Below, in pieces: positions 43,136-56,986 of a DNA stretch of 64,000 bases. A program made the translations under genes and the position numbers. Position 1 is the first letter of the stretch, and every line of letters starts with the position of its first letter. Origin of the DNA: Mytilus trossulus. Its lineage: Eukaryota. The DNA lies in assembly GCF_036588685.1 (NCBI RefSeq), contig NC_086386.1, forward strand, positions 29,140,001 to 29,204,000. Reading direction: 5' to 3'. The notes under the pieces were generated by a model. It worked only from the letters and a program-made list of their open reading frames with translations. It searched no databases and was not told the DNA's origin.

Positions 43136-44530
43136 ATGAACTATCATCTGCATTTTTTAATGTCAATATACTTTGGACTTTTACACACGATAGTGGAAAG
43201 TGGAGGTAAATTTGTATTTCTCTTGGTAGTAACTGGGGACAGTTTATCTGTTCCTAGTATTTAAGTAAGCATATCAATAATTAGTCCTATGATATATGAC
43301 TTCGCATTATATATTCACTATTTAACGTTTTTTTATATGCTCGGGTAGCACATTGATAATATAAAAAAAATAAAAAATTAGCAAAATCAGTAAAAGGAAA
43401 TTGAAATAGAAAATAATGCCCCCGAGTTCATATATTATAGGACTAATTAATATTATACCAAAACAATTTATAATAATCATGGGATTTTAAGAGTGGATTT
43501 TTATTTCAAGAGTGCATGAACTTCAAGTGGGTGCAGACTAGGACGGATATGTACAATATAGTAGAATTTATCTGATACTGTTAGGTTTGCTTTTCATAAA
43601 GACTACGGTTTACACTGGTAATCCCTGCAAATTCGATTTTACGTTTCGCCATATTATGTATTAGCGTCTGTGTCTAAAGAGAACCCAGAAATGCATGAAA
43701 GAAGATAAGAATTCATCTTAAAAGAATCAAAATATAAAAATATCTGACTATCTGCGTAATAAGAACCTGAGAATTAAATAAATATGATTATTTGTTCTTA
43801 TCATAGGGGTTATTTAGGACTTGTTAGCGCTTGTAATGAAATACATTTTCGAAAAACATGTATGATGCATCAAATTAACTGCGTTTTTTTGTTGTTATAA
43901 TTATTGTGTTTTACAATTAGCGCTCGTATTCCCTGATACATGATGATACGTTCTCAGACGTTTGTTACTAGAAGCCATAAATAATATATGAATATTTAAA
44001 AACAACATTATATATTTAATACAAGTTATAATTCAGTAAATCAGTACCTTCATATTGTAGATACTAAAATGAATATGGTGTTGAGAGCCTTAATGTCTCC
44101 GACGCCACTACCAACTACAATGCCTCCGACGCCATCACCAACTACAATGCGTCCACTGCCTTCAATGCCAATGATACCCCAGCCACCAAGATGTGTTTAT
44201 AGAGGACAAACATATCGTTTTGGTGAGATGATTCAACAGGGACAATCAGGAAACTGGTGCCATTTCACAATGTGTGACCTTTCAGGGCAAATCATACATG
44301 GGGATGACTTCCACTGTTCTACAACTACATTACTCCCAACTACAAACTTACCACGAACCACAACACCACGTGGATGTTTCTTTGAAGGGAGACATTACCA
44401 ACTCGGGGAACAAATATCAAGCGGACAATCAGGAAACTGGTGCCATTTTTCAATGTGTGACTATTCAGGTCAAATCCATGGTGATGTCTTTAACTGTTTG
44501 GCAACCTTACGGCCGACAACACCAACATAA
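43136..44530 (+). CDS. Small secreted Thr/Pro-rich protein with two 4-Cys repeats (~179 aa; exons 43136-43205, 44061-44530)
   Basis: Exon 1 encodes a signal-peptide-like MNYHLHFLMSIYFGLLHTIVESG with a gag|gtaaat donor; phase-1 acceptor ttgtag| at 44061; repeat C.(Y/F).G..Y..GE.I..GQSGNWCHF.MCD.SGQI.HGD.F.C; AATAAA at 44562. Confidence 0.78.
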
Positions 44531-47182
44531 TACATTGTACATATAGGCTGATCAGTTCAATAATAAACTCAGTCGTTTTTACGTTTTCATAGTTGAATCA
44601 CTTGTTTACAGTCAGGATTCTATATGTACTTCGTCAAAATTATCTCACCAGTACGCCAGTTAATTTTTACAATCGTAGAAATTGAAGCCATTGTAGGGAT
44701 GATTCACTCCCAATTTAGCTCTTTATTTTATCCAAATAGCACCATTACGATCCTTATTTATATGTCAGTTGTATTTTAAAAAACCAACGTATCTTCTAGC
44801 TAATGAGTATAAGTTAATGTTCGTGACTGCATTGAGTCAGAGACATATAATACATTATACGTCTCTGATTGAGTCAACTTAAACTATTGTCTGATCGGTT
44901 GTCAGGTGGAATTTTCGAAAATTCATAAACATTTAAAAAAAAATCTAATTAAATATTTTGTGGAGGGGCTGACTAAGAACGTTCTTTGGTTGAAGACTTT
45001 AAGCCCTAATTATCACATACACAAAGTTATGTTTGTTCGAAGATATGCATTTTCATCCTTCAACTTGAAAGACTGTCGTAAAGTACTTTTAGTCATTGAA
45101 AAAATAGATTTTCGAACACCTACACTTTTTTGTGATTCATTAGAAAGGTATTTCACTTGACCCATTATTTCATCTTTTAGTACTGTGCTGTGAATTTCTT
45201 ATGTTATGAAGTCAACCTGTAGCCTCCGTCCGTGGGAGAGAGAGAAAAAAATAAAATCGGTGGTTATGCATTTTCTACATTCAACTTGATAGATACTCAT
45301 GTCGTCGGCTTGATATCTAATTGTTCTGCTTTGTAATATAGATAAATTGAAAACTTATGCAAATGGTGTTTTAAAAATAAAATTAAGAGATAACTGTATT
45401 AAATTATATTTGAAGCCATTTCAACCGTACCGGCTCAAGAAACTTAATCTCGTTGAGATGACCAACGGAACTTGGAACATATAATAATCGATTTATTCAA
45501 GTATGTCAGATTTCCCGAGTTACCTGTCATACTGCATTTTTATGGTAATTTTAGACAGTAGTTTCGGTGATCCTATAAAAAAGAAGTCTTATAAATAACC
45601 GTTTTAAAATGTTTCTAATTTTGATCTTATTTATTATGCTTTCAATTATACAACCCCTTGATTTATCAAATATTAACATTTTTGTTAAAAAAAAAAAGAG
45701 GCTTTCAATATATGCTATCTGATTAGCCGGCAAAGCTGTATCACGAATATATTGACTACTTTTCTGTATTAACTGGTCTCTTGTTGAGAGTAACGCTGGC
45801 GGATCTAGAATTTTTCGTAAGTGGGGGCCCACTTGCGGCATAAGAGGAGGCCGCGCCAGTCACGCTTCAGTGATTCCCTATATAAGCAACCATTTTTTCC
45901 CCAAAAAAAAGGTTGGGAGAGGGCGGGCCCCTGGGTCCTCTAAATCCGCCTCTGAGTAATACCTCATTGGCACCATGTCTTCTTATTGCGATATCCTAAT
46001 ATGGAAGTCCCTAGCAATTGCCACCATGGAGAAAGCTATCTGTGCATGTAATTGCCACGGTAAATAAATCTAAATTAACCAGCTCATGGGGCGTCTTTTC
46101 CGAAATACTCATCTGGACATGCAAATTACAATGCAAGAAATCTTGCAATGACCATGCAAGATGTGCCCGGAAACAAAGGCTTTTATTCTAAAAAATTATC
46201 AATATTACCAATGTTTGCAGAGTGGATGAAGCACAATAAAAAAAAAAACTAGATGAACCCGTGATTGATCGATGTTTTAATTTGAATATGAATACTGCAC
46301 CTTAATTTGATCTAATTCATAAAAGACCAACACACTGGACTTGACCTTAAGCTAGCCAATATAAAAGAAAATATCCACAGAAAAAAAAATCACTCTATTA
46401 GTATCTGGATATATTAGTATCCTGACTGCGGGTCGCTTACTCATCGCATTTACTCCTAATTGCATCTTGCTTAGCAGTGGCGGATCCACGGGGTGTTCCG
46501 GGGGTTGGAACCCTCCCTTTTTGGGGGCCGATCAATGCATTTAAATGGGGAATATTATAGTTGGAACTCCACCTTTTATCCTGGGTCACGAACTGGAGAC
46601 CAGCACATTAACACCTAGCAACATCCGAAAGAGTCTTCCTTGGATCAATGTCAAATAGGACAACCTATGAATAAAACATTTATGCCTAAGAAGCGCTCTA
46701 TTTGTTTGTTATTCCTCCAAGCTTTTAGTATTCGAAGAAAGGTCGAACATTCATCATTCGAGGTTTGATAGAAATACCAAACATTCAATATACTATACCA
46801 AATAAAATCACAGAATCAAAACATCCATACTATCTTGTAACTTGTAACTTGTATATCGTAACTTCCTCCAATAAAGGAGCACCTCAATCATGAGTATTCC
46901 ACCACCTTGTAAATGTACATGTTTATCTCTAAATGATTAAAATATAAAAGTCACACTGGTAGACATCTATCATCATTAAAAGGAATATTAAAAGTGGTTG
47001 TATATACATATGTATCGGCATAAAAACTTGAGGTAATTCAATGTCATGACATTTAAAATCTAAAATATATTTTCTCGATATTTACAGTTTATTTACACTG
47101 ATGTTGATCCGCGGAAATCGGTCTTCTGTATATTTGCTGGTTTTATTTAAGATAGTTAGCTTTTATCTGTATACCACAGTGT

Positions 47183-47540
47183 AGTGTGGCCACGTACCCA
47201 CGCTTACTGCTTCAAAGGATTTTATTGGGCTAAGTTGTAGTAAGTTTCAGTAAAGTGTGGCGAGATCCACGCTTACTCTGTTATAAACAATGACAAATAT
47301 TTAGCCTCTTCAATAAAGTGTGGCGAGATCCACGCTTTTGTTGTGTTGACGTATATGTGTTTGTATAAGAAGGCATTATGGATCAGTTAACAAGTGTGGC
47401 GAAATCCACGCTCATTTTGTAATAATGTTGAGGACGCTTCATAGTTGTGTCCCAAGAGTGTGGCGAAATCCACGCTCATTTTGCAATAATTTTGAGATTG
47501 CTTCGTAGTTTTATCCCTAGAGTGTGGCGTAACCCACGCT
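47183..47540. repeat. Array of six 20-22-nt hairpins AGTGTGG-N6-CCACGCT in the LINE 3' UTR
   Basis: Copies start at 47183, 47254, 47317, 47393, 47457, 47521, separated by 43-56-nt mostly unrelated spacers. Confidence 0.9.
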
Positions 47541-47562
47541 CAAGGTATCTATTAAGCTAACT

Positions 47563-50500
47563 TCATGTTCGATCGATATCATTGAGAATTCTTGACCTGC
47601 TTGTGTGTAGTAGAAAGCATAGTCTCCTTGATTGAAATTCTATGTCCATTAGGATTGATTTGTCACATCTGGGTTCCAGTAATCCAATTGTGCTTGAATC
47701 AACTATCACTTGGATAAGGCCTACTTCGCTACCGTTGTTTTTGAATTGAATACGGAGCTTTTCGTGTAGCATTTGGATATTACTCAAGATTGATTTTCTC
47801 TGGTTCGACAGCGCAGGACAAAGCAGTAGGAAATGTTCCAAGGTTTCATCTGATGTTTGGCACAAAGGACAAGTTCCCATTAATCCTTTGTTTTTTGAAT
47901 GCTTTGTTCTGTCAGCCATGAGTATATAACTTCCTGTTGCTATTCTTAATTTTACGGGTATTCTCATAGCTTCTTGCATGGAATTACTAGCAGATAGGTT
48001 TACTAATACATGTGTCTTCCCTGGTATATATTGAATATTTAAATACTTTAGTGAGGGGTATAGTTTACAATGACCCTCGATAAAATGTTTCCAATACTTT
48101 GATACTTCTTTATTTACCATGGTCTTCCATTTTAATTTTTGAATTTGACTGTCTAATACATGTAAAGCTGATGGTAAGTTGTATTTCGCTAGAATCGTTT
48201 TAACAGTGATAAACCAGCTGTGACTATCATCCGTTTTCATAAGTAGTTGTCTGTATGCAATTTGTTTTTCTAAACTATCATGTGGTTGTCTAGATATATT
48301 TCCAAATAATGACAAGATCTTTTTATGTATTTGACCCTCTATTGGTAGTTGTCCAGACAGAATGTATATGGCGGGCGTAGCTGTACTTGTTGGTAAAGAA
48401 AGTAACTGCTTTATACATTTTTTGTGGAATATGTCAATAATATCAAAGTTTTTTCCTGTAGGAGTTACTAATTCCAGGCCGTACAGAAGTACAGGGATGA
48501 CATAGATGTTAAATATATGTAGTAATGACTGTATGTCCAGTCCATTTTTCCCATGCAAACCAGCTGGCATAAGACTGTACATGGCTCTTCTAGCCTTTTT
48601 AACGTTTTCATACAACGGATTAGGATCATCTGGTTTTGATGTGCGCAAGACCCCCATATGGGTTGTTTGGCTAACTATTGGCATTATTGAGTTACCTATA
48701 CTCCATGGAAAGGAAGGTTCTTTCTGTTTTCTACGATTTGGATATACTGGTAGAATAACACTCTTCACTGGTTGAAGCTTATATCTCTCCCTTCGACTGT
48801 AGTTGTATGCCATGTTAATGAGTACCTGTAGTTCCTCGGGGTTGTCACTCATTAGTGCCACATCATCTGCACAAGTTGGAGCTGCGCAGCAAATAGATCC
48901 TATTTTTGCTCCTAATCCAGAATACTCGATATCTGTTAGGAGATTGTTGATGTACAGCTTGTACAGGTCAGCGCTCAGTATACCACCTTGTTTTACGCCT
49001 TGACATATTGAGAATGGTTCAGATATTAGACCATTAAATTTAACTACACTGCTAGAGTCCATGTGAAGACTATGTATAAGTTTCCATAGTAGTCCATCTA
49101 CACCTGCTATGTATAGCTTTCGTAGGATACTCTCGTGCGTTACCACATCAAATGCCGATTTAGCATCTAGAAGCGATATATATATTATTTTACCAGCATC
49201 CCTGCATTCTCTAATAAATTCTTCAATGAAGAAGGAGCAATTCATTGGAGCTGAGTTCTCAGTAAATCCTCTTTGTAGCCTATTTTGTTCTTTCAATATT
49301 TTAGGTTGGACCTTAGCCTTTGCTACAGACTCAATTAGTTTCAGCAGTATTGACATGATAGTAATCCCTCTGTAGTTGGAAGCATTCTTGTTACTTCCTT
49401 TGTTCTTGAATACAGGAGTGAGGAGACCCTTTTTAAGTATTTCAGGTATTAATCCTAATTTAAATGATGATACTATCATATTTGTTATTACTGTTTGCAG
49501 CTTTTCCCCACCATATTTGATATTTTCAGAGGATATGCTATAAATGTCTGGAGATTTGTTTATTTTCAATCCATTTATGGCGTCTTGAACATCTTTTTCT
49601 GTTACAGAGATGGTATTAGTTTGATTGTTACATATATCAATTATATTGTCTAGATCTAATGCTAACTGTTTGTAATATTCGTCGTCATATTCAGGATCAA
49701 TTGCTGGTTGCGCTAATTTGTTGAAATGATGTTTCCATCCAACTATAATTTCATTGTCAGATTTATAGATATTATCTTGTACATTCAGTTCGGATATACA
49801 ATTCTTCAGCTTTCCTTTTTTTTTACCAAGTAACTTGTAAAATATTTGATCATGTTTAGTTCTAGCATCTAAAATTTCTTGTCTATCATTGAGGACTTCC
49901 ATCGCTATCTCTATTCTACATGTTTTTCGAAGTTGATATTTCGCAGATTTCATATCACAGTATATTTTGTTGTTTGGTGATGTCGGTCTTTCATTTGCTT
50001 TCCATTTTGCAAAAGCTTCTTTACATCTTTTACTTGCTTGATTTGTTTGAAAGGATCTTATCTTAGGTTTTTGTTTCTTTCTCTTGTATACCTTGGGTTT
50101 AGGAGCTGATTCTATTGCTGCATTTTTCATAATGGTATTAACTTGTGTCATAACTTTAGTTAGCTCATCACCCGATTGAATCTCACTTGAAATGGCTGTT
50201 AGTGACTTGTTAATATTCTCCTCGTATAGATTCACGTCAATAGTACTCCATTTAATTTTTCTATTGGTAGGCAATATTTTTGTACTTTGTTGCCTATGTT
50301 TTATTTTGACGTTTAGTCTGCAGGTTATATGATAATGATCAGAGACTAAAGAACTACAGGAGTCAAGTTTAAGAAAACCGGAATGGTTCTCAAACAGCTC
50401 TTTGTCTAGTAATATGAAATCGATAGAAGATATTTCTTCATGCTTGTAGTTTATGAATGTTCGGCCCAGATCTTTTGTATATAAGCGATGGTCCTCCATT

Positions 50501-51120
50501 AGTGCTTTGACTGCCTCGTAGCGTTTTGATTCACTTTTGTCAATTATGTTTTCATTTATATCGCCACCTATAACAATATGATGTGTGTTATTGTATTGAG
50601 AGCAGAGCGAATGAAGTTGTTCTGTACAATCTAGAAATTCAATCAATTTTTCAACTCTATTATCCTTGCATGGCATATAAACGCAAATCACTAGAATGTC
50701 TTTACCACATGTATTTGTTATTTCAATACATTGGATTCTGTTATTAGTACAGTCTACCTTAGTGATTTTGTGATCGATAGTCTTTTTCCATAATATGCAA
50801 ACTCCACCGTATCCTCTTGGTAAGTGGGTAGGTGGTAGCGGATCATCGGAATCAACTGCTTTTCCAATACCATTAAAATCAACATGAATATTTTCTAAAA
50901 GTGGTAGCTGACAGTCGAATAGCCAGTGTTCTTGCAGCAACACAATACAATAGTTAAAAAGAATTTCAGAGAATAGTGGATCACAGGTTTTAATATTTTT
51001 ACAGTTAAAAGATAAAATGTTTAAATGGTAAACTTTAAAATCGCTATTTACATTTCTCGTTGCTGTAGGTACTAACTTCCGTTGTGTAAAAGTCTTTCCT
51101 GATGAAAAAAATTTTGATCC
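47563..51120 (-). CDS. LINE ORF2: AP endonuclease + reverse transcriptase + C-terminal CCHC finger (open frame from 51120; no in-frame AUG before the endonuclease)
   Basis: LNILSFNC..LLQEHW, GGDIN, IDFI, SDH (APE); YRGITI, LDAKSAFD, GVKQGGILS, CADD (RT); CPLC..ETLEHFLLLC; no internal stops. Confidence 0.95.
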   Translation of the reverse strand, partial: GSKFFSSGKTFTQRKLVPTATRNVNSDFKVYHLNILSFNCKNIKTCDPLFSEILFNYCIVLLQEHWLFDCQLPLLENIHVDFNGIGKAVDSDDPLPPTHLPRGYGGVCILWKKTIDHKITKVDCTNNRIQCIEITNTCGKDILVICVYMPCKDNRVEKLIEFLDCTEQLHSLCSQYNNTHHIVIGGDINENIIDKSESKRYEAVKALMEDHRLYTKDLGRTFINYKHEEISSIDFILLDKELFENHSGFLKLDSCSSLVSDHYHITCRLNVKIKHRQQSTKILPTNRKIKWSTIDVNLYEENINKSLTAISSEIQSGDELTKVMTQVNTIMKNAAIESAPKPKVYKRKKQKPKIRSFQTNQASKRCKEAFAKWKANERPTSPNNKIYCDMKSAKYQLRKTCRIEIAMEVLNDRQEILDARTKHDQIFYKLLGKKKGKLKNCISELNVQDNIYKSDNEIIVGWKHHFNKLAQPAIDPEYDDEYYKQLALDLDNIIDICNNQTNTISVTEKDVQDAINGLKINKSPDIYSISSENIKYGGEKLQTVITNMIVSSFKLGLIPEILKKGLLTPVFKNKGSNKNASNYRGITIMSILLKLIESVAKAKVQPKILKEQNRLQRGFTENSAPMNCSFFIEEFIRECRDAGKIIYISLLDAKSAFDVVTHESILRKLYIAGVDGLLWKLIHSLHMDSSSVVKFNGLISEPFSICQGVKQGGILSADLYKLYINNLLTDIEYSGLGAKIGSICCAAPTCADDVALMSDNPEELQVLINMAYNYSRRERYKLQPVKSVILPVYPNRRKQKEPSFPWSIGNSIMPIVSQTTHMGVLRTSKPDDPNPLYENVKKARRAMYSLMPAGLHGKNGLDIQSLLHIFNIYVIPVLLYGLELVTPTGKNFDIIDIFHKKCIKQLLSLPTSTATPAIYILSGQLPIEGQIHKKILSLFGNISRQPHDSLEKQIAYRQLLMKTDDSHSWFITVKTILAKYNLPSALHVLDSQIQKLKWKTMVNKEVSKYWKHFIEGHCKLYPSLKYLNIQYIPGKTHVLVNLSASNSMQEAMRIPVKLRIATGSYILMADRTKHSKNKGLMGTCPLCQTSDETLEHFLLLCPALSNQRKSILSNIQMLHEKLRIQFKNNGSEVGLIQVIVDSSTIGLLEPRCDKSILMDIEFQSRRLCFLLHTSRSRILNDIDRT

Positions 51121-52016
51121 CTATAATTGTTTAATCCTGGCCTGGGCACCTCGGTAGGTGTGTATAAAATTGGACAACCATGAACAAGTTTCGATCTATC
51201 TTGCAAATTTATCATACCCGGTGTAATCATATCTGAGTTATTCGTTAAAGAAGGTTGATGTTTTTGCATTGCTTTCCCTTCTTTATTGCTTGGTGTGTAA
51301 TAATTATATTGCAATGATTGATATACCCGATTTTGAGGAGGCTGTTGTACGACATTTATTGCTGGAGGTGGATGAGAGACATGATACTGCGGAGGCTGAT
51401 GTGCTCTATTTATTGTCGGTGGTGGATGAGAGACATGATACTGTGGAGGCTGATGTATGACATTCATTGCCAGAGGAGTAGCCTCAGAATTTCCAACAGT
51501 GCCTCTATGTACTGTGTTTGTGTTGGTATACACATGTTCCTTTGCAAGTGTTTCATTTGTGTTCCCTTTTGGCAGCATATCATTTATTACGGTTGACTGT
51601 ACAGGTATTTGTTCGCTTTCGATTTGGTTTATTTGAGCATCTACTTTCTGCAGTATGAGCTTTGTCATTCTTTCTCGCATAGCTAGTAGCAAATTATCTG
51701 TTTCAGTGACACATTTCTGGTGACAGCAGTTTTGTACTGGTGAGTTGGTATCTGTTCTTTTGGCTTCAGACTCGGTATCTTCTAGTACAACTATTTTTCT
51801 GTTAAGAATTCTTATTGTGTTGTCTAGTTCTTTTATTTTAGTTTCTTGCATGAGAATGGTAGATTGAAGGCGGATATTTTCAGCGTTAAGTTCTGAATTT
51901 CTCATTTCCCTCAATCGGATGTCGTCTTCTCGTTTCTTTAATTTTAACTCTAGTTGTCTTAAGTCTTTAAATTTAATTTGTTGGTCATCAGTAGGTTTGT
52001 TCTGATTTGTACACAC
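51072..52016 (-). CDS. LINE ORF1b: coiled coil + Gln/Pro/His-rich low-complexity repeats
   Basis: 314-aa ORF; heptad-rich LRQLELKLKKRE...; HQPPQYHVSHPPP repeats; -1 frame relative to ORF1a. Confidence 0.75.
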   Translation of the reverse strand: MCTNQNKPTDDQQIKFKDLRQLELKLKKREDDIRLREMRNSELNAENIRLQSTILMQETKIKELDNTIRILNRKIVVLEDTESEAKRTDTNSPVQNCCHQKCVTETDNLLLAMRERMTKLILQKVDAQINQIESEQIPVQSTVINDMLPKGNTNETLAKEHVYTNTNTVHRGTVGNSEATPLAMNVIHQPPQYHVSHPPPTINRAHQPPQYHVSHPPPAINVVQQPPQNRVYQSLQYNYYTPSNKEGKAMQKHQPSLTNNSDMITPGMINLQDRSKLVHGCPILYTPTEVPRPGLNNYRDQNFFHQERLLHNGS

Positions 52017-52069
52017 ATCTTCTGTTTTGTTATTAGGTATTATACTTTGTTCAGCGATTGTGCTGTTTT

Positions 52070-53329
52070 TTAGTTTGCTGCTTGTATTTGAGTTCTTTTT
52101 TGTTTTTTTGTTCTTGAAATATTGTCTACTTGTGCTTTTTCTACTGTCATATCATTGTCAATACAGATTAATGGAGTTTCAGTTTGACTACCATATGGTG
52201 TTTTGATGATTGTTTCATCATGCTCATTATCAAGTTCCTTTGATGTATCATAACTTGAGTCTTTCTTGACTTGCTGATCTTGTATTTCTAGGCCAAAGCA
52301 TGCTCGACATTTTTGTGTTGTGCAGTTTGTAGCTATGCATGTTAAGTGTACAATATTGTTACAGCTATCACAGACAGTTTCATCTGAATCTAATATATTA
52401 TTGTCACAATTAGAGCATATTTGCTCAATTCTTTCTTCATTCAGTAGTATCTCTGCACTGGTTGCCATTTGTGAATTTATTAAGGCTAAACATTTTTGTG
52501 TTGTTTTCATCATGCTAATGTTGTCAATTTCATGAGTATTAGTTTGGAGTGATGTACTTGAACAGGTGTTTTCAATAGCAGTGCTAGTTGGATTTGGACA
52601 GGATGAACATGTGTATGACGTGTTGTTATTACTTTCAATTTTGTCAATATCAATCCGCCTAAGACCTTCACACATATAGTGCACCCACATTTGGCAATTG
52701 TTGCACTGTACAGCCCTTGTGATAACATTTCTATTGCATTTTCTACATCTGGTTTTCATGTTGTTATCGGTTGATCTGTTATCTAATATGTATTGCAATT
52801 GATCTTCCAGCAATTTATTAATAGTACTAGTATTCATTTGTTGGTTATTTACATAGGTATTACATATCATGCCGTGGATTATTGGTAATTCATTTTCAAT
52901 AAAATGAGTTATGGATTTTCCATTAATCAATAAGGTAGCTTTTGTTGTATAGGCATTTATGGTATAGGATTGACCGCTTTTTAGTTGAACCTTAAATGTT
53001 TTTTGGACTAATACACCTCTTCTATCGTGTTCAGATTGAAATGTAACTTCACCTGTCGAAATCGGATAGCATTGATAATAGCTAGATAATGCAGCAATAA
53101 ATAACTCGAATGTTGCCAGATCTAATGTAACTGTGAGCCCTCCACTAGTCATTTTATATGAGATATCAGTCCTCTTTGCTGATTCTAGTTTGTTTTGTAG
53201 AACTTTATCTATATCAAGAGAGTATGTTTTGGTTTTAGTCTGATTTTGTACTTGATTGACATGGTTGTTATCCTGTATAGTTTTTGAATTAACAACTATT
53301 TTTTCACTGTTATTAGTGACTAAGGCCAT
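52070..53329 (-). CDS. LINE ORF1a with two PHD-like zinc fingers
   Basis: CRKC..QCNNCQMWVHYMC..YTCSSC and CSNC..VCDSCNNIVHLTC..CRAC (C4HC3). Confidence 0.85.
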   Translation of the reverse strand: MALVTNNSEKIVVNSKTIQDNNHVNQVQNQTKTKTYSLDIDKVLQNKLESAKRTDISYKMTSGGLTVTLDLATFELFIAALSSYYQCYPISTGEVTFQSEHDRRGVLVQKTFKVQLKSGQSYTINAYTTKATLLINGKSITHFIENELPIIHGMICNTYVNNQQMNTSTINKLLEDQLQYILDNRSTDNNMKTRCRKCNRNVITRAVQCNNCQMWVHYMCEGLRRIDIDKIESNNNTSYTCSSCPNPTSTAIENTCSSTSLQTNTHEIDNISMMKTTQKCLALINSQMATSAEILLNEERIEQICSNCDNNILDSDETVCDSCNNIVHLTCIATNCTTQKCRACFGLEIQDQQVKKDSSYDTSKELDNEHDETIIKTPYGSQTETPLICIDNDMTVEKAQVDNISRTKKQKRTQIQAAN

Positions 53330-53374
53330 TCTGATAAGTAACCTGTTTCAAAGTAGAATAATTTTATTCAGCTA

Positions 53375-53795
53375 AGTGTGGCGTAACCCACGCTTACTTT
53401 GTGTTGTTGGTTTATTTTTTTTTTTTTTTTTGGTTTTTTGCACCAGTTCTGTCGTTTTGCAGTTTAGTGTAGTGAAACCTACGCTCACTGCTCTAAAGTA
53501 CGAATAGGGAATATAATTCAAGGTTATTCACAGCTTTGCATATAGCTTACAGCAAAAGTATCTATTGACCAAACTCCTGTTGGTAGACTAAAAACTATGT
53601 ACACATATATATATATATATAGCAATAAAATCTTTCAAGTGTGGATACAGATGTTAATAACAGTTTTGAACATGTACCAATATAGTGTGGCGTAACCCAC
53701 GCTTACTATAAATAAAGAAGCAGCATAACTAAATGTTGTATTTATTGGTTGTATCTAAAATATATTATACAGTGTAGTGTGGCGTAACCCACGCT
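53375..53795. repeat. Second cluster of four of the same hairpins, between the SGNH ORF and ORF1a
   Basis: Copies at 53375, 53466 (compensatory G-C to A-T pair), 53684, 53776. Confidence 0.9.
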
Positions 53796-53828
53796 TACTG
53801 TATTGTACAATGCAGGTACACAGCTTGT

Positions 53829-54694
53829 TTAATTAGAAGTTTCCCAACAGTCCTTAATTATTTGTTGTTCAATTTTTCTTAACCAAACTTTTGACAGTAG
53901 CTGTCGTGGATGTACACCATCAAAGTACAGTTCAAACCTATGCTGCACCCGTCTTGTGACTCTGTGGCGATCACCTTTCCTGTGCTTTTGTATTAATGTA
54001 AGATCAGAGCTAAATTTTGGAGAGTAGGAGATATTGCTTGTGTTAACTTCTCTGATTTTTCTGTTAACACTGACTATTTGTTCTTCTAAATCTTTGTCGT
54101 GTTGATAGAAACTTTGAATCTGATTTTTACTTATTCCAGCAGCCCAATTCCAATTGACAATTGAATATAAAGGTATTTCCAGTATCGTTACTTTAGACCC
54201 TGGGTGTGCTTTGATGCATTGTGAAATTAAATTAGCTTCGGCTATTATATCGTCTACAACTGAATCGTCATGGGTTCTTAATGATATGTATCGCCCGTTT
54301 TTTATAGTAAAGTCACATGTACCAGCCCATACATACTTTAATCATTCAAACATTTTCTGTGCTTTATTTTGTAATTCATTCATTTGATTGTATAGCTCAA
54401 ATTTTGGGCACCATGATTGGTTAATGAAAATTATCTTATCTTATCTTATACCCATATATTTCCCTCTTCTTGTATTAGGTCGTCTATGGAGCTCTCCAGC
54501 CACTCTCTACACTCTCTAATTCTAGCACCTTTTCTACAGAACCAAGTAAAATCTCGCTCTGTAGTTGTTGATGCTTGGGATTCCAAGTTATACCCCTTAC
54601 TGTCAGTGATTATAATGGGAGTATATGTTTTAGTCCCAAGTGGGGCGAGCCTGCTCCTTTGCAGAAATTTTGTTAATTTTCTTTGAATTAACAT
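53829..54694 (-). CDS. Stand-alone SGNH/GDSL-type esterase ORF (~250 aa), interrupted by a ~113-bp insertion at 54336-54448
   Basis: ATG at 54694; IIITDSKG (block I Ser), RKGA (block II), VWAGTCD (block III), FDGVHP (block V); segment 54335-53829 is a 169-codon open frame that the ORF track misses. Confidence 0.82.
54336..54448 (+). mobile_element. Short retro-insertion (LINE/SINE 3' tip) with (CTTAT)n tail inside the SGNH ORF
   Basis: Ends TTATCTTATCTTATCTTA; removing it restores the in-frame NIWV|YVWAGTCD. Confidence 0.7.
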
Positions 54695-55215
54695 GTATGT
54701 TGAGATATAATATAGAATATATATGTTTCTGTTTATGGTATTGTAATCAAGGTATGAAGTAACTTTAACTTTCTTTTGAAGTTCGCGGACAGGAAGTGCA
54801 CGGACCCCGCGAAAGTCAAATTGAGTTGTGTGATATTCGTCTCAACTGCTTCTATTTCAGATAAAAAGTGTATATATATTGGCTTGTTTTGTAGTTTTTC
54901 ATAAATGTCACAAGATTGTTTGTTTTATATGTTCAATAACACACTATACAACACAAAAATCATAGAATATTCCCTGCACCGCAAAAATGTATCAACCACC
55001 ACCATTCATCACGTGAAACATTCAATATCATATATGCATATAACAATAAGTTTTTCTATCCTTGTTTTTGTTTCATATCTCGACTTTCTTGGTATTGCAA
55101 AATGGGTGCTGCTTTCAAAGGAGATACTGAACCAAAATTTTAACAAATTAAAGTTGCTTCTTTGAAATTATTATTATTATGTCGTCATGCTGCACGATTT
55201 TATTAACTGTTATAA

Positions 55216-56986
55216 CAACAAGAGGCTCTAAAGAGCCTGAGTGTGTCGCTCACCTTGGTATATATGTGAATTAAACAAAGGAAGCAGACAGTTCATGACA
55301 AAATTGTGTTTAGGTGATTGTGATGTGTTTGTACATCTTACTTTACTGAACATTCTTGCTGCTCACAATTATCTCTATCTATAATGAACTTGTCCATGTA
55401 GTTTCAGTGGAAAATGTTAGTAAAAATTTACAAATTTTATGAAAATTGTTAAAAATTGATTATAAAGGACAATAACTTCTTAGGGGTCAATTGACCATTT
55501 TGGTCATTTTGACTTATTTTTGAGTCTTAAATTGCTGTTTACAGTTTATCTCTATCTATAATAATATTCAAGATAATAACCCAAAACAGCAAAATTTCCT
55601 TAAAATTACCAATTTAGGGGCAGCAACCTAACAACGAGTTGCCCGATTCATCTGAAAATTTCAGGGCAGATAGATCTTGACCAGATCAACAATTTTACCT
55701 ATTGTCAGATTGCTCTAAATGCTTTGGTTTGTGAGTTATAAGCCAAAAACTGCATTTTACCCCTATGTTCTATTTTTAGCAGTAGCGGCCATCTTGGTTG
55801 GTTTGCCCGGTCACAAAACACAATTTTTAAACTAGATAGCCTAATAATGCTTCTGGCTATGTTTGGTAAAATTTGGCCCCGTAGTTTCAGAGGAGAAGAT
55901 TTTTGTAAAAGTTAACTAAGATTTACGAAAAATGGTTAAAAATTGACTTTAAAGGGCAATAACTCCTAAAGGGGTCAACTGACCATTTTGGTCCTGTTGA
56001 CTTATTTGTAAATCTTACTTTGCTGAACATTTTTGCTATTTACAGTTTATCTCTATCCATAATAATATTCAAGATCATTTCCAAAAACAGCAAAATTTCC
56101 TTAAAATTACCAATTCAGGGGCAGCAACCCAACAACGGGTTGTCCCATTCATCTTAAAATTACAGGGCAGATAGACTTGACCAGATAAACAATTTTACTC
56201 ATTGTCAGATTTGCTCTAAATGCTTTGGTTTTTGAGTAATAACCCAAAACTGCATTTAACCTCCATGTTCTATTTTTAGCCCTGGCGGCCATCTTGGTTG
56301 TTTGGCCGGGTCAAAAAACACAATTTTTAAACTAGATACATCAATGATGATTGTGGCCAAGTTTGGATTGATTTGGCTTGGTAGTTTCAAAGGAGGAGAT
56401 TTTTGAAAAAGATCATGGAGATTTACGAAAAAGGTTAAAAATTGACTATAAGGGCAATAACTCCTAAAGGGGTCAACTGACCATTTTGGTTATGTTGACT
56501 TATTTGTAAATCTTACTTTGCTGAACATTATTGCTGTTAACAGTTTATCTCCAACTATAATAGTATTCAAGATAATAACCAAAAACAGTAAAATTTCCTT
56601 AAAACTACCAATTTAGGGGCAGCAACCCAACAATGGGTTGTCTGATTCATCTTAAAATTTCAGGGCAAATCTTGACCTGATAAACAATTTTACCCCTTGT
56701 CAGATTTGTTCTAAATGCTTTGGTTTTGAGTTATAAGCCAAAAACTGCATTTTACCCCTAGGTTCTATTTTTAGCCATGGCGGCCATCTTGGTTGGTTGG
56801 CTGGGTAAAAAAACACAATTTTTAAACTAGATACATCAATGATGATTGTGGCCAAGTTTACTTTATTTGGCCCAGTAGTTTCAGAGGAGAGAATTTTTGT
56901 AAAAGTTAACGACGATGGACGACAGACGACGGACGCAAAGTGATGGGAAAAGCTCACTTGGCCTTTTAGGACAGATGAGCTTAAAA
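55216..56986. mobile_element. Helentron/HINE-like element with ~3 tandem units of ~495 bp
   Basis: GGTTAAAAATTGAC..AAGGGCAATAACTCCT recurs at ~55445, 55935, 56435; (GAC)n microsatellite and AGCTCA..TGAGCT terminal inverted repeat. Confidence 0.78.

Follow-up and report, generated by a model that had tools for sequence, protein, structure and literature searches.

A conserved slippery heptamer at the ORF1/ORF2 junction of a LINE clade in Mytilus trossulus points to gag-pol-like −1 frameshifting

A three-ORF retrotransposon and its ORF1/ORF2 junction

The window analysed here, a stretch of 64,000 nucleotides from Mytilus trossulus (NC_086386.1, positions 29,140,001 to 29,204,000; coordinates below are those of the window), carries on its minus strand a full-length copy of a non-LTR retrotransposon, whose ends we placed where blastn similarity to six other genomic copies (97-99% identity) stops, at 55025-55002 and 46842-46834 (Table 1). 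ORF2 matches profiles of an AP endonuclease (Exo_endo_phos, E = 1e-4), a reverse transcriptase (RVT_1, E = 3e-19) and a C-terminal zinc finger (zf-RVT, E = 0.048), which together with the upstream ORF1, the tandem tail and the dispersed near-identical copies identifies an APE-type non-LTR retrotransposon. A separate esterase-like ORF0 before ORF1 makes this a three-ORF element, an organisation that recurs, among the families defined below, in numbers 1, 2, 4, 5, 6 and 8 at least, and ORF0 was also located at L135:1500-2396. ORF0 matched Lipase_GDSL clusters at 0.93 by atlas features; searches of Pfam and PDB gave no match. The window copy is damaged in ORF0 and ORF1, with ORF2 left open, since ~111 extra bases (54446-54336) split ORF0 and a short A-run (52109-52103) splits ORF1, while ORF2 remains a frame of 1185 codons. 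In copies L135 and L140, ORF0 has 299 codons and ORF1 is a single frame of 758 codons, and the A-run is one A longer in four of the six other copies. The break between ORF1a and ORF1b is thus read as an indel in the A-run of individual copies and not as a further site of frameshifting, and "ORF1b", taken for a separate ORF in an earlier note on this DNA, is part of a single ORF1.

Table 1. Features of the element and of its ORF1/ORF2 junction in the window.
Feature	Coordinates	Strand	Basis or remark
Full-length non-LTR retrotransposon copy, ~8.2 kb (ORF0, ORF1, ORF2, 3′ UTR, tandem tail)	46834..55025	-	blastn
ORF0, SGNH/GDSL-esterase-like by features only	53829..54841	-	atlas hits
ORF1 with PHD finger (PHD, E = 9e-6)	51072..53329	-	ORF reading, profile match
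Last ORF2-frame stop (TAG) before the overlap	51121..51123	-	sequence reading
ORF2, 1185 codons: AP endonuclease, reverse transcriptase, C-terminal Cys motif	47563..51120	-	Pfam-type matches
Tandem slippery site, A_AAU_UUU (51114-51108) and U_UUU_UUU (51111-51105)	51105..51114	-	sequence, cross-family comparison
Partly conserved motif resembling AGCCUC at +17 to +22, degenerate in the window	51090..51095	-	family comparison
ORF1 stop (TAG)	51072..51074	-	end 40 nt from start of the U_UUU_UUU heptamer
3′-terminal 4-bp hairpin, compensatory stem variants across families	46866..46879	-	family tail comparison
Short tandem tail, 7-nt unit	46834..46853	-	sequence

The 3′-terminal hairpin lies just before the tandem tail in 29 families and falls into 8 stem types whose two outer pairs vary in a compensatory manner, a count that partly reflects the search pattern, which required pairing. 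It is likely a recognition signal for the reverse transcriptase. A second hairpin often stands just 5′ of it (tails of L221-L262, L127-L140, L168 and L197). Several copies of a short motif of the type GCGTGGRTTWCGCCACAC, which looks like a small repeated hairpin, occur on the minus strand in the ORF0-ORF1 spacer (53800-53370) and the 3′ UTR (47540-47180). Beyond the element, a ~500-bp tandem repeat at 55460-56800, with a related copy in L139, flanks its 5′ end, and a 176-codon frame on the plus strand at 44000-44530, containing Thr/Pro-rich stretches and two Cys-rich repeats, is probably an exon of a host gene.

Named reverse transcriptase homologues of the element are mostly bivalve proteins, the best of them included, and its architecture fits RTEX. 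From this architecture and from its reverse transcriptase motifs, it is a candidate RTEX element. As in RTEX, an APE-RT ORF2 is combined with a genuine ORF1 and with a further ORF that is esterase-like by its features. Passages of two papers describe RTEX (RTE-X) as a LINE clade abundant in bivalves (PMC10294476, PMC3905857), one of them noting esterases in CR1 as well (PMC3905857). Some close homologues (e.g. P0002-P0004, P0006, P0008 and P0010) carry annotations that place them in MAGs of bacterial symbionts (Thiodiazotropha, Sedimenticola) and probably represent contamination of these bins by host LINEs.

The earlier note had described an ORF2 frame that opens right after a TAG at ~51123-51121, overlaps ORF1 by ~16 codons in the −1 frame, has no AUG until inside the endonuclease (VYMP) and holds, within the overlap, A_AAU_UUU followed by U_UUU_UUU in phase at 51114-51105, and every part of this description was borne out. 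The frame is open from 51120 to 47563, directly after the TAG; the overlap measures 49 nt (16 codons); the first AUG is codon 149, at 50676, downstream of the N and QEH motifs of the endonuclease; and both heptamers, which share a run of seven T, are in ORF1 phase. Among the copies of the window family, we found neither an in-frame AUG upstream of the endonuclease nor an ORF1 fused in frame to ORF2, two observations that could have overturned the frameshift reading. AAAATTTTTTT is kept in five of the six other near-identical copies, and the sixth carries CAACATTTTTTT, with the A run altered and seven T retained. Contigs from two of four public runs, which we guessed to be DNA, cross 51072-51123 without gaps, thereby ruling out an assembly homopolymer error in the T run.

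Conservation of the heptamer across the clade

Relatives in the same genome were collected with an endonuclease query, for which 150 of 624 candidates were scored and 80 of the 120 rows without a locus were taken, their match reaching or nearly reaching the N-terminus. With most further copies of one family skipped and longer versions of 14 loci added, 94 loci were obtained, which clustered into 33 families at 80% DNA identity. An in-phase slippery site in an open ORF2 stretch was present in 32 of the 33 families (27-57% endonuclease identity), the exception being one decayed copy. The heptamer is U_UUU_UUA in 27 of the site-bearing families (26 representatives and the second copy of family 14), and the five others have A_AAU_UUU (twice), C_CCU_UUU, U_CCU_UUU or C_CUU_UUU, followed in each case by C. 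The sub-branch of families 24, 27, 30 and 32 (L102/L103, L097/L098, L116/L118 and L113) and L185 has exchanged U_UUU_UUA for X_XXU_UUU then C, with CG after the heptamer in three members, and the window family switched independently to UUU_UUU C. In the window, the U_UUU_UUU at 51111-51105 is read as the homologue of the clade's U_UUU_UUA, and as a variant of it, because it lies 40 nt from the end of the ORF1 stop, as in other families.

In a fixed interval of 240 nt before the endonuclease, TTTTTTA was found in 25 of the 33 representatives, always in the shift phase and never in the other two, compared to 11 of 693 control intervals; since the families share ancestry, these counts are not independent draws and the binomial figure is no true probability. 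A motif could be kept for a reason unrelated to ORF2 translation, whether as a Phe-Leu motif at the C-terminus of ORF1p, where a loose FLxxxSL pattern is indeed seen, or as a binding site in RNA or DNA. However, the spelling T TTT TTA is used for only 3 of the 81 FL pairs located elsewhere in ORF2 and for 3 of the 15 located in ORF1; codon choice at the site is thus far tighter than the peptide requires, so that Phe-Leu coding is not the explanation; the variants alter the residues (PF, NF, LF); and such a reading leaves ORF2 without a start. We consider it hardly credible. The heptamer is thus conserved beyond amino-acid need across diverged relatives. The flanks of the 33 families are mostly unalignable, and among the 32 DNA matches between the sister families 17 and 18 the heptamer is a frequent starting point, with 9 that begin at query position 200-201.

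A scan of metagenome contigs yielded 80 further loci, 7 of which were dropped for too little upstream sequence or for lack of an N-terminal match; a scan of viral contigs found no relatives. Judging from their GC content of 31-53%, the metagenome loci are probably from other hosts. An endonuclease tree of 98 rows, from which 5 more metagenome loci and 3 short own-genome families were left out, was built by a quick IQ-TREE search with midpoint root and without bootstrap, and united every U_UUU_UUA element in one clade of 72 rows (SH-aLRT 99). The slippery site is present in 37 of the 42 metagenome loci inside this clade and in none of the 26 outside, whereas an AUG near the endonuclease start is found in 8 of 42 inside and 21 of 26 outside. 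Own genome and metagenome together provide 70 sites, which represent 64 families at 80% DNA clustering and among which heptamer, phase and −1 overlap are kept, as the earlier note's reading would demand. The slippery site is accordingly real and conserved across the clade.

Three of the five in-clade metagenome exceptions look decayed or variant. The other two (L179:180-200 and L193:1002-1038) make up a branch whose ORF1 and ORF2 share one frame, interrupted by a single stop, in the context UAA CAA UUA in L179, for which only 59 upstream codons are visible, and UAG GAC in L193. UAA CAA UUA is the type I readthrough context of TMV, which according to passages of PMC13517186 is active in plants and yeast whichever of the three stops it accompanies. 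This branch is a candidate for a switch to stop-codon readthrough, which would be another route to a fusion.

Routes to ORF2 and the candidate frameshift signal

None of the 62 phase-0 sites, which were collected without requiring openness, is followed by an ORF2-frame stop before the ORF1 stop or the endonuclease start is reached, over 971 codons in which ~77 stops were expected from an upstream stop rate of 0.079; a single site is off phase. This favours frameshifting, because frameshifting needs openness from the heptamer onwards and reinitiation at the stop does not. On the reinitiation model, ORF2 would be a separate protein whose synthesis starts close to the ORF1 stop, either by termination-reinitiation or by some other initiation that needs no AUG, and the U run would belong to a signal placed 40 nt ahead of that stop. 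Passages of earlier work offer precedents, ORF2 translation in L1 being described as AUG-independent (PMC5009743) and SART1 as using UAAUG coupling (PMC3894237, PMC10275272). An in-frame AUG lies between site and endonuclease at 12 of the 70 sites and is absent from 58; these 12 could initiate ORF2 independently, and some families could use both routes. The distance between the end of the ORF1 stop and the start of the heptamer, precisely 40 nt at 24 of the 70 sites and below 40 nt at two, both broken single copies, would also suit reinitiation, yet the remaining 44 stops lie at 43-388 nt. Neither the codon phase nor the X_XXY_YYZ-type variants would be needed, and only one site in 70 has AUGA at the ORF1 stop, the combination of stop and start that a −1 overlap would naturally use; UGA serves as the ORF1 stop likewise in 1 of 70. 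A SART1-type AUG overlapping or adjoining the ORF1 stop is missing from most families, and the only near-cognate codons before the endonuclease in the window are AAG, AAG and ACG. Reinitiation as the clade's route to ORF2 therefore appears improbable.

Family 2 (L037-L046, L133 and L134) is very young, has the most young copies of any family, with many identical ORF2 copies of 1185 codons, and has, besides the heptamer, one AUG at +6 and another at the ORF1 stop (UAAUG), so that ORF2 may be translated by two routes in this family.

The junction could also be bridged at the RNA level. If UUUUUUAG were a 3′ splice acceptor, a spliced RNA would join an upstream exon to ORF2 and the phase would be fixed too, and letters 7-8 are indeed AG in 47 of the 70 sites. 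In the other 23, AG is absent from these letters, and the first AG falls in phase 1 in 10, phase 2 in 8 and phase 0 in 5; pyrimidines 5′ of the run are not enriched (0.44 versus 0.45); and none of 68 genomic matches from three family searches starts right behind the AG, which counts against splicing because a spliced RNA should, through copying in cis, have left such insertions. We regard splicing as very improbable. Slippage of RNA polymerase on the T run, adding one U and fusing the frames in some transcripts, would draw on the presence of a homopolymer and on run-length changes in 2 of 72 copies: L065 has one T fewer, and in L055 (G000:C12:56546353-56553153), a single copy, an extra T joins the two frames over 1266 codons, as far as an internal stop. 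Polymerase slippage does not need the codon phase, which nonetheless holds at 62 sites against one; the runs are only 4-7 T long; and A_AAU_UUU and C_CCU_UUU keep tRNA re-pairing while the run shortens. We regard this, too, as very improbable.

We thus favour frameshifting by the ribosome, for which several features of a retroviral-type site are in place: an X_XXY_YYZ heptamer in phase inside the overlap and a −1 frame open into an ORF2 that mostly lacks a start of its own. On the strength of these sequence-level tests, which support the earlier note's notion of a gag-pol-style fusion, ORF2 is probably translated through a programmed −1 ribosomal frameshift that joins ORF1 to the endonuclease-reverse transcriptase, a mechanism we infer. 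Ribosomes decoding UUU-UUA (UUU-UUU in the window) would slip back by one base at low frequency. Most would continue in the 0 frame, stop ~11 codons later and release ORF1p, and the shifted minority would make a fusion of ~1,920 aa in the window family, with a predicted junction peptide (DQNFFSSGK) that is the same from either window heptamer. A low level of fusion would be in keeping with an enzyme of which each RNA requires few copies. No fused ORF1-ORF2 protein was found in the protein database, for which gene callers would not predict one; a search there for longer fused proteins of 2075-5000 aa, also without result, is uninformative because the predicted fusion is ~1,920 aa long.

As to a stimulator of the shift, the weak stem that the earlier note had proposed 3′ of the site can be drawn, but its energy (−5.0 kcal/mol) is no better than chance (z of −0.09, −1.22 and +0.54 for three intervals), and one copy of the window family (L006/L139) deletes 6 nt of it. 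Modelled as stem-loops, the regions 3′ of the 70 sites were no more stable than shuffled sequences (mean z of +0.12 for +8 to +67 and +0.23 for +8 to +107), and no conserved stem-loop of the kind expected 5-9 nt downstream was found. Long-range pairing fared no better. Among the 29 families for which 3′ tails were located (none were found for families 3, 6, 8, 21 and 25), sites paired with their cognate tails no better than with non-cognate ones (permutation P = 0.36, 0.60, 0.19 and 0.11), the P values of these four interval pairs resembling those of six control pairs; shuffle z was −0.10, −0.22 and −0.50 in three test intervals versus −0.09 and −0.17 in two controls; and the best 5-bp register reached 62% versus 60% when permuted (P = 0.17). 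The register GCCUC/GAGGU is fully paired in 5 of 29 families. GCCUC belongs to the AGCCUC-like motif downstream of the site (G18 in 19, C19 in 16, C20 in 21, U21 in 18 and C22 in 19 of 32), and there may be a weak contact of conserved with conserved sequence between it and the tail GAGGU.

Two simpler regularities surround the heptamer. A G stands right after it (+8) in 47 of 70 sites, and the preferred stop at +40 is 11 codons past the UUA codon, a spacing near that of collided ribosomes. Our guess is that U_UUU_UUA(G) is prone to shifting by itself, perhaps with the aid of a ribosome that waits in a queue while the one ahead of it terminates at the +40 stop; the 40-nt distance could instead be inherited or reflect the ORF1p tail. 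The most complete version of the model, a clade-wide uncleaved fusion made by structure-free shifting on U_UUU_UUA, with a queueing pause at the +40 stop and a swap to readthrough in some lineages, such as has also taken place among retroviruses, is put forward tentatively and is in this combined form rather doubtful.

Significance and relation to known systems

LINE ORF2 translation is called an open question in passages of PMC3894237 and PMC5009743, where the worked cases are reinitiation. Frameshifting of the gag-pol kind is a known mechanism rarely reported for LINEs, and a site conserved across an animal LINE clade would be a new variant of it. Our literature search, outside which lay most subscription journals and Repbase Reports, found no paper that describes such a site, conserved within a clade of animal LINEs, and a term search of a bivalve transposon survey (PMC10294476) did not find the word "frameshift". 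With a heptamer extending over 64 families, its absence from AUG-bearing outgroups and a readthrough context in one branch, a gag-pol-like fusion becomes directly testable. If it is made, the reverse transcriptase would carry ORF1p covalently, which could account in a simple way for cis-preference and particle stoichiometry, and an ORF2 annotated from an internal AUG would be missing its endonuclease. In addition, the set offers dozens of natural U_UUU_UUA sites that have no obvious RNA stimulator.

Like SART1 and mammalian L1, the element would have a bicistronic LINE RNA with a low output of ORF2. Passages of PMC3894237, PMC10275272 and PMC5009743 attribute ORF2 of SART1 and L1 to reinitiation, yielding a separate ORF2p, whereas AUG and stop-start signals are mostly absent here. 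Drosophila HeT-A shares frameshifting in a non-LTR element, but as described in passages of PMC5009743 the shift lies within gag, and HeT-A is without a reverse transcriptase.

The closest likeness is to gag-pol of retroviruses and LTR elements, above all HIV-1, whose shift site is U_UUU_UUA and for which bases 3′ of the heptamer matter, according to passages of PMC5009743. The heptamer and its phase are identical, the overlap is short, the enzyme ORF lacks an AUG and a G is preferred directly after UUA. Unlike HIV-1, the present elements are non-LTR retrotransposons without a protease to cut the fusion, folding revealed no 3′ stem-loop of the usual sort, and the 0-frame stop prefers a distance of 40 nt. 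Among non-LTR elements, Dictyostelium TRE5-A and TRE3-A also have an APE-RT-zinc finger ORF2 that overlaps ORF1, and the passages of a review (PMC5911963) state that it is reached by a −1 frameshift; these are amoeba elements of the L1 clade, and the same passages report neither conservation of the shift site nor an assay of it. In contrast, the elements described here carry one heptamer over 64 families, belong to a different, animal clade and have a three-ORF layout.
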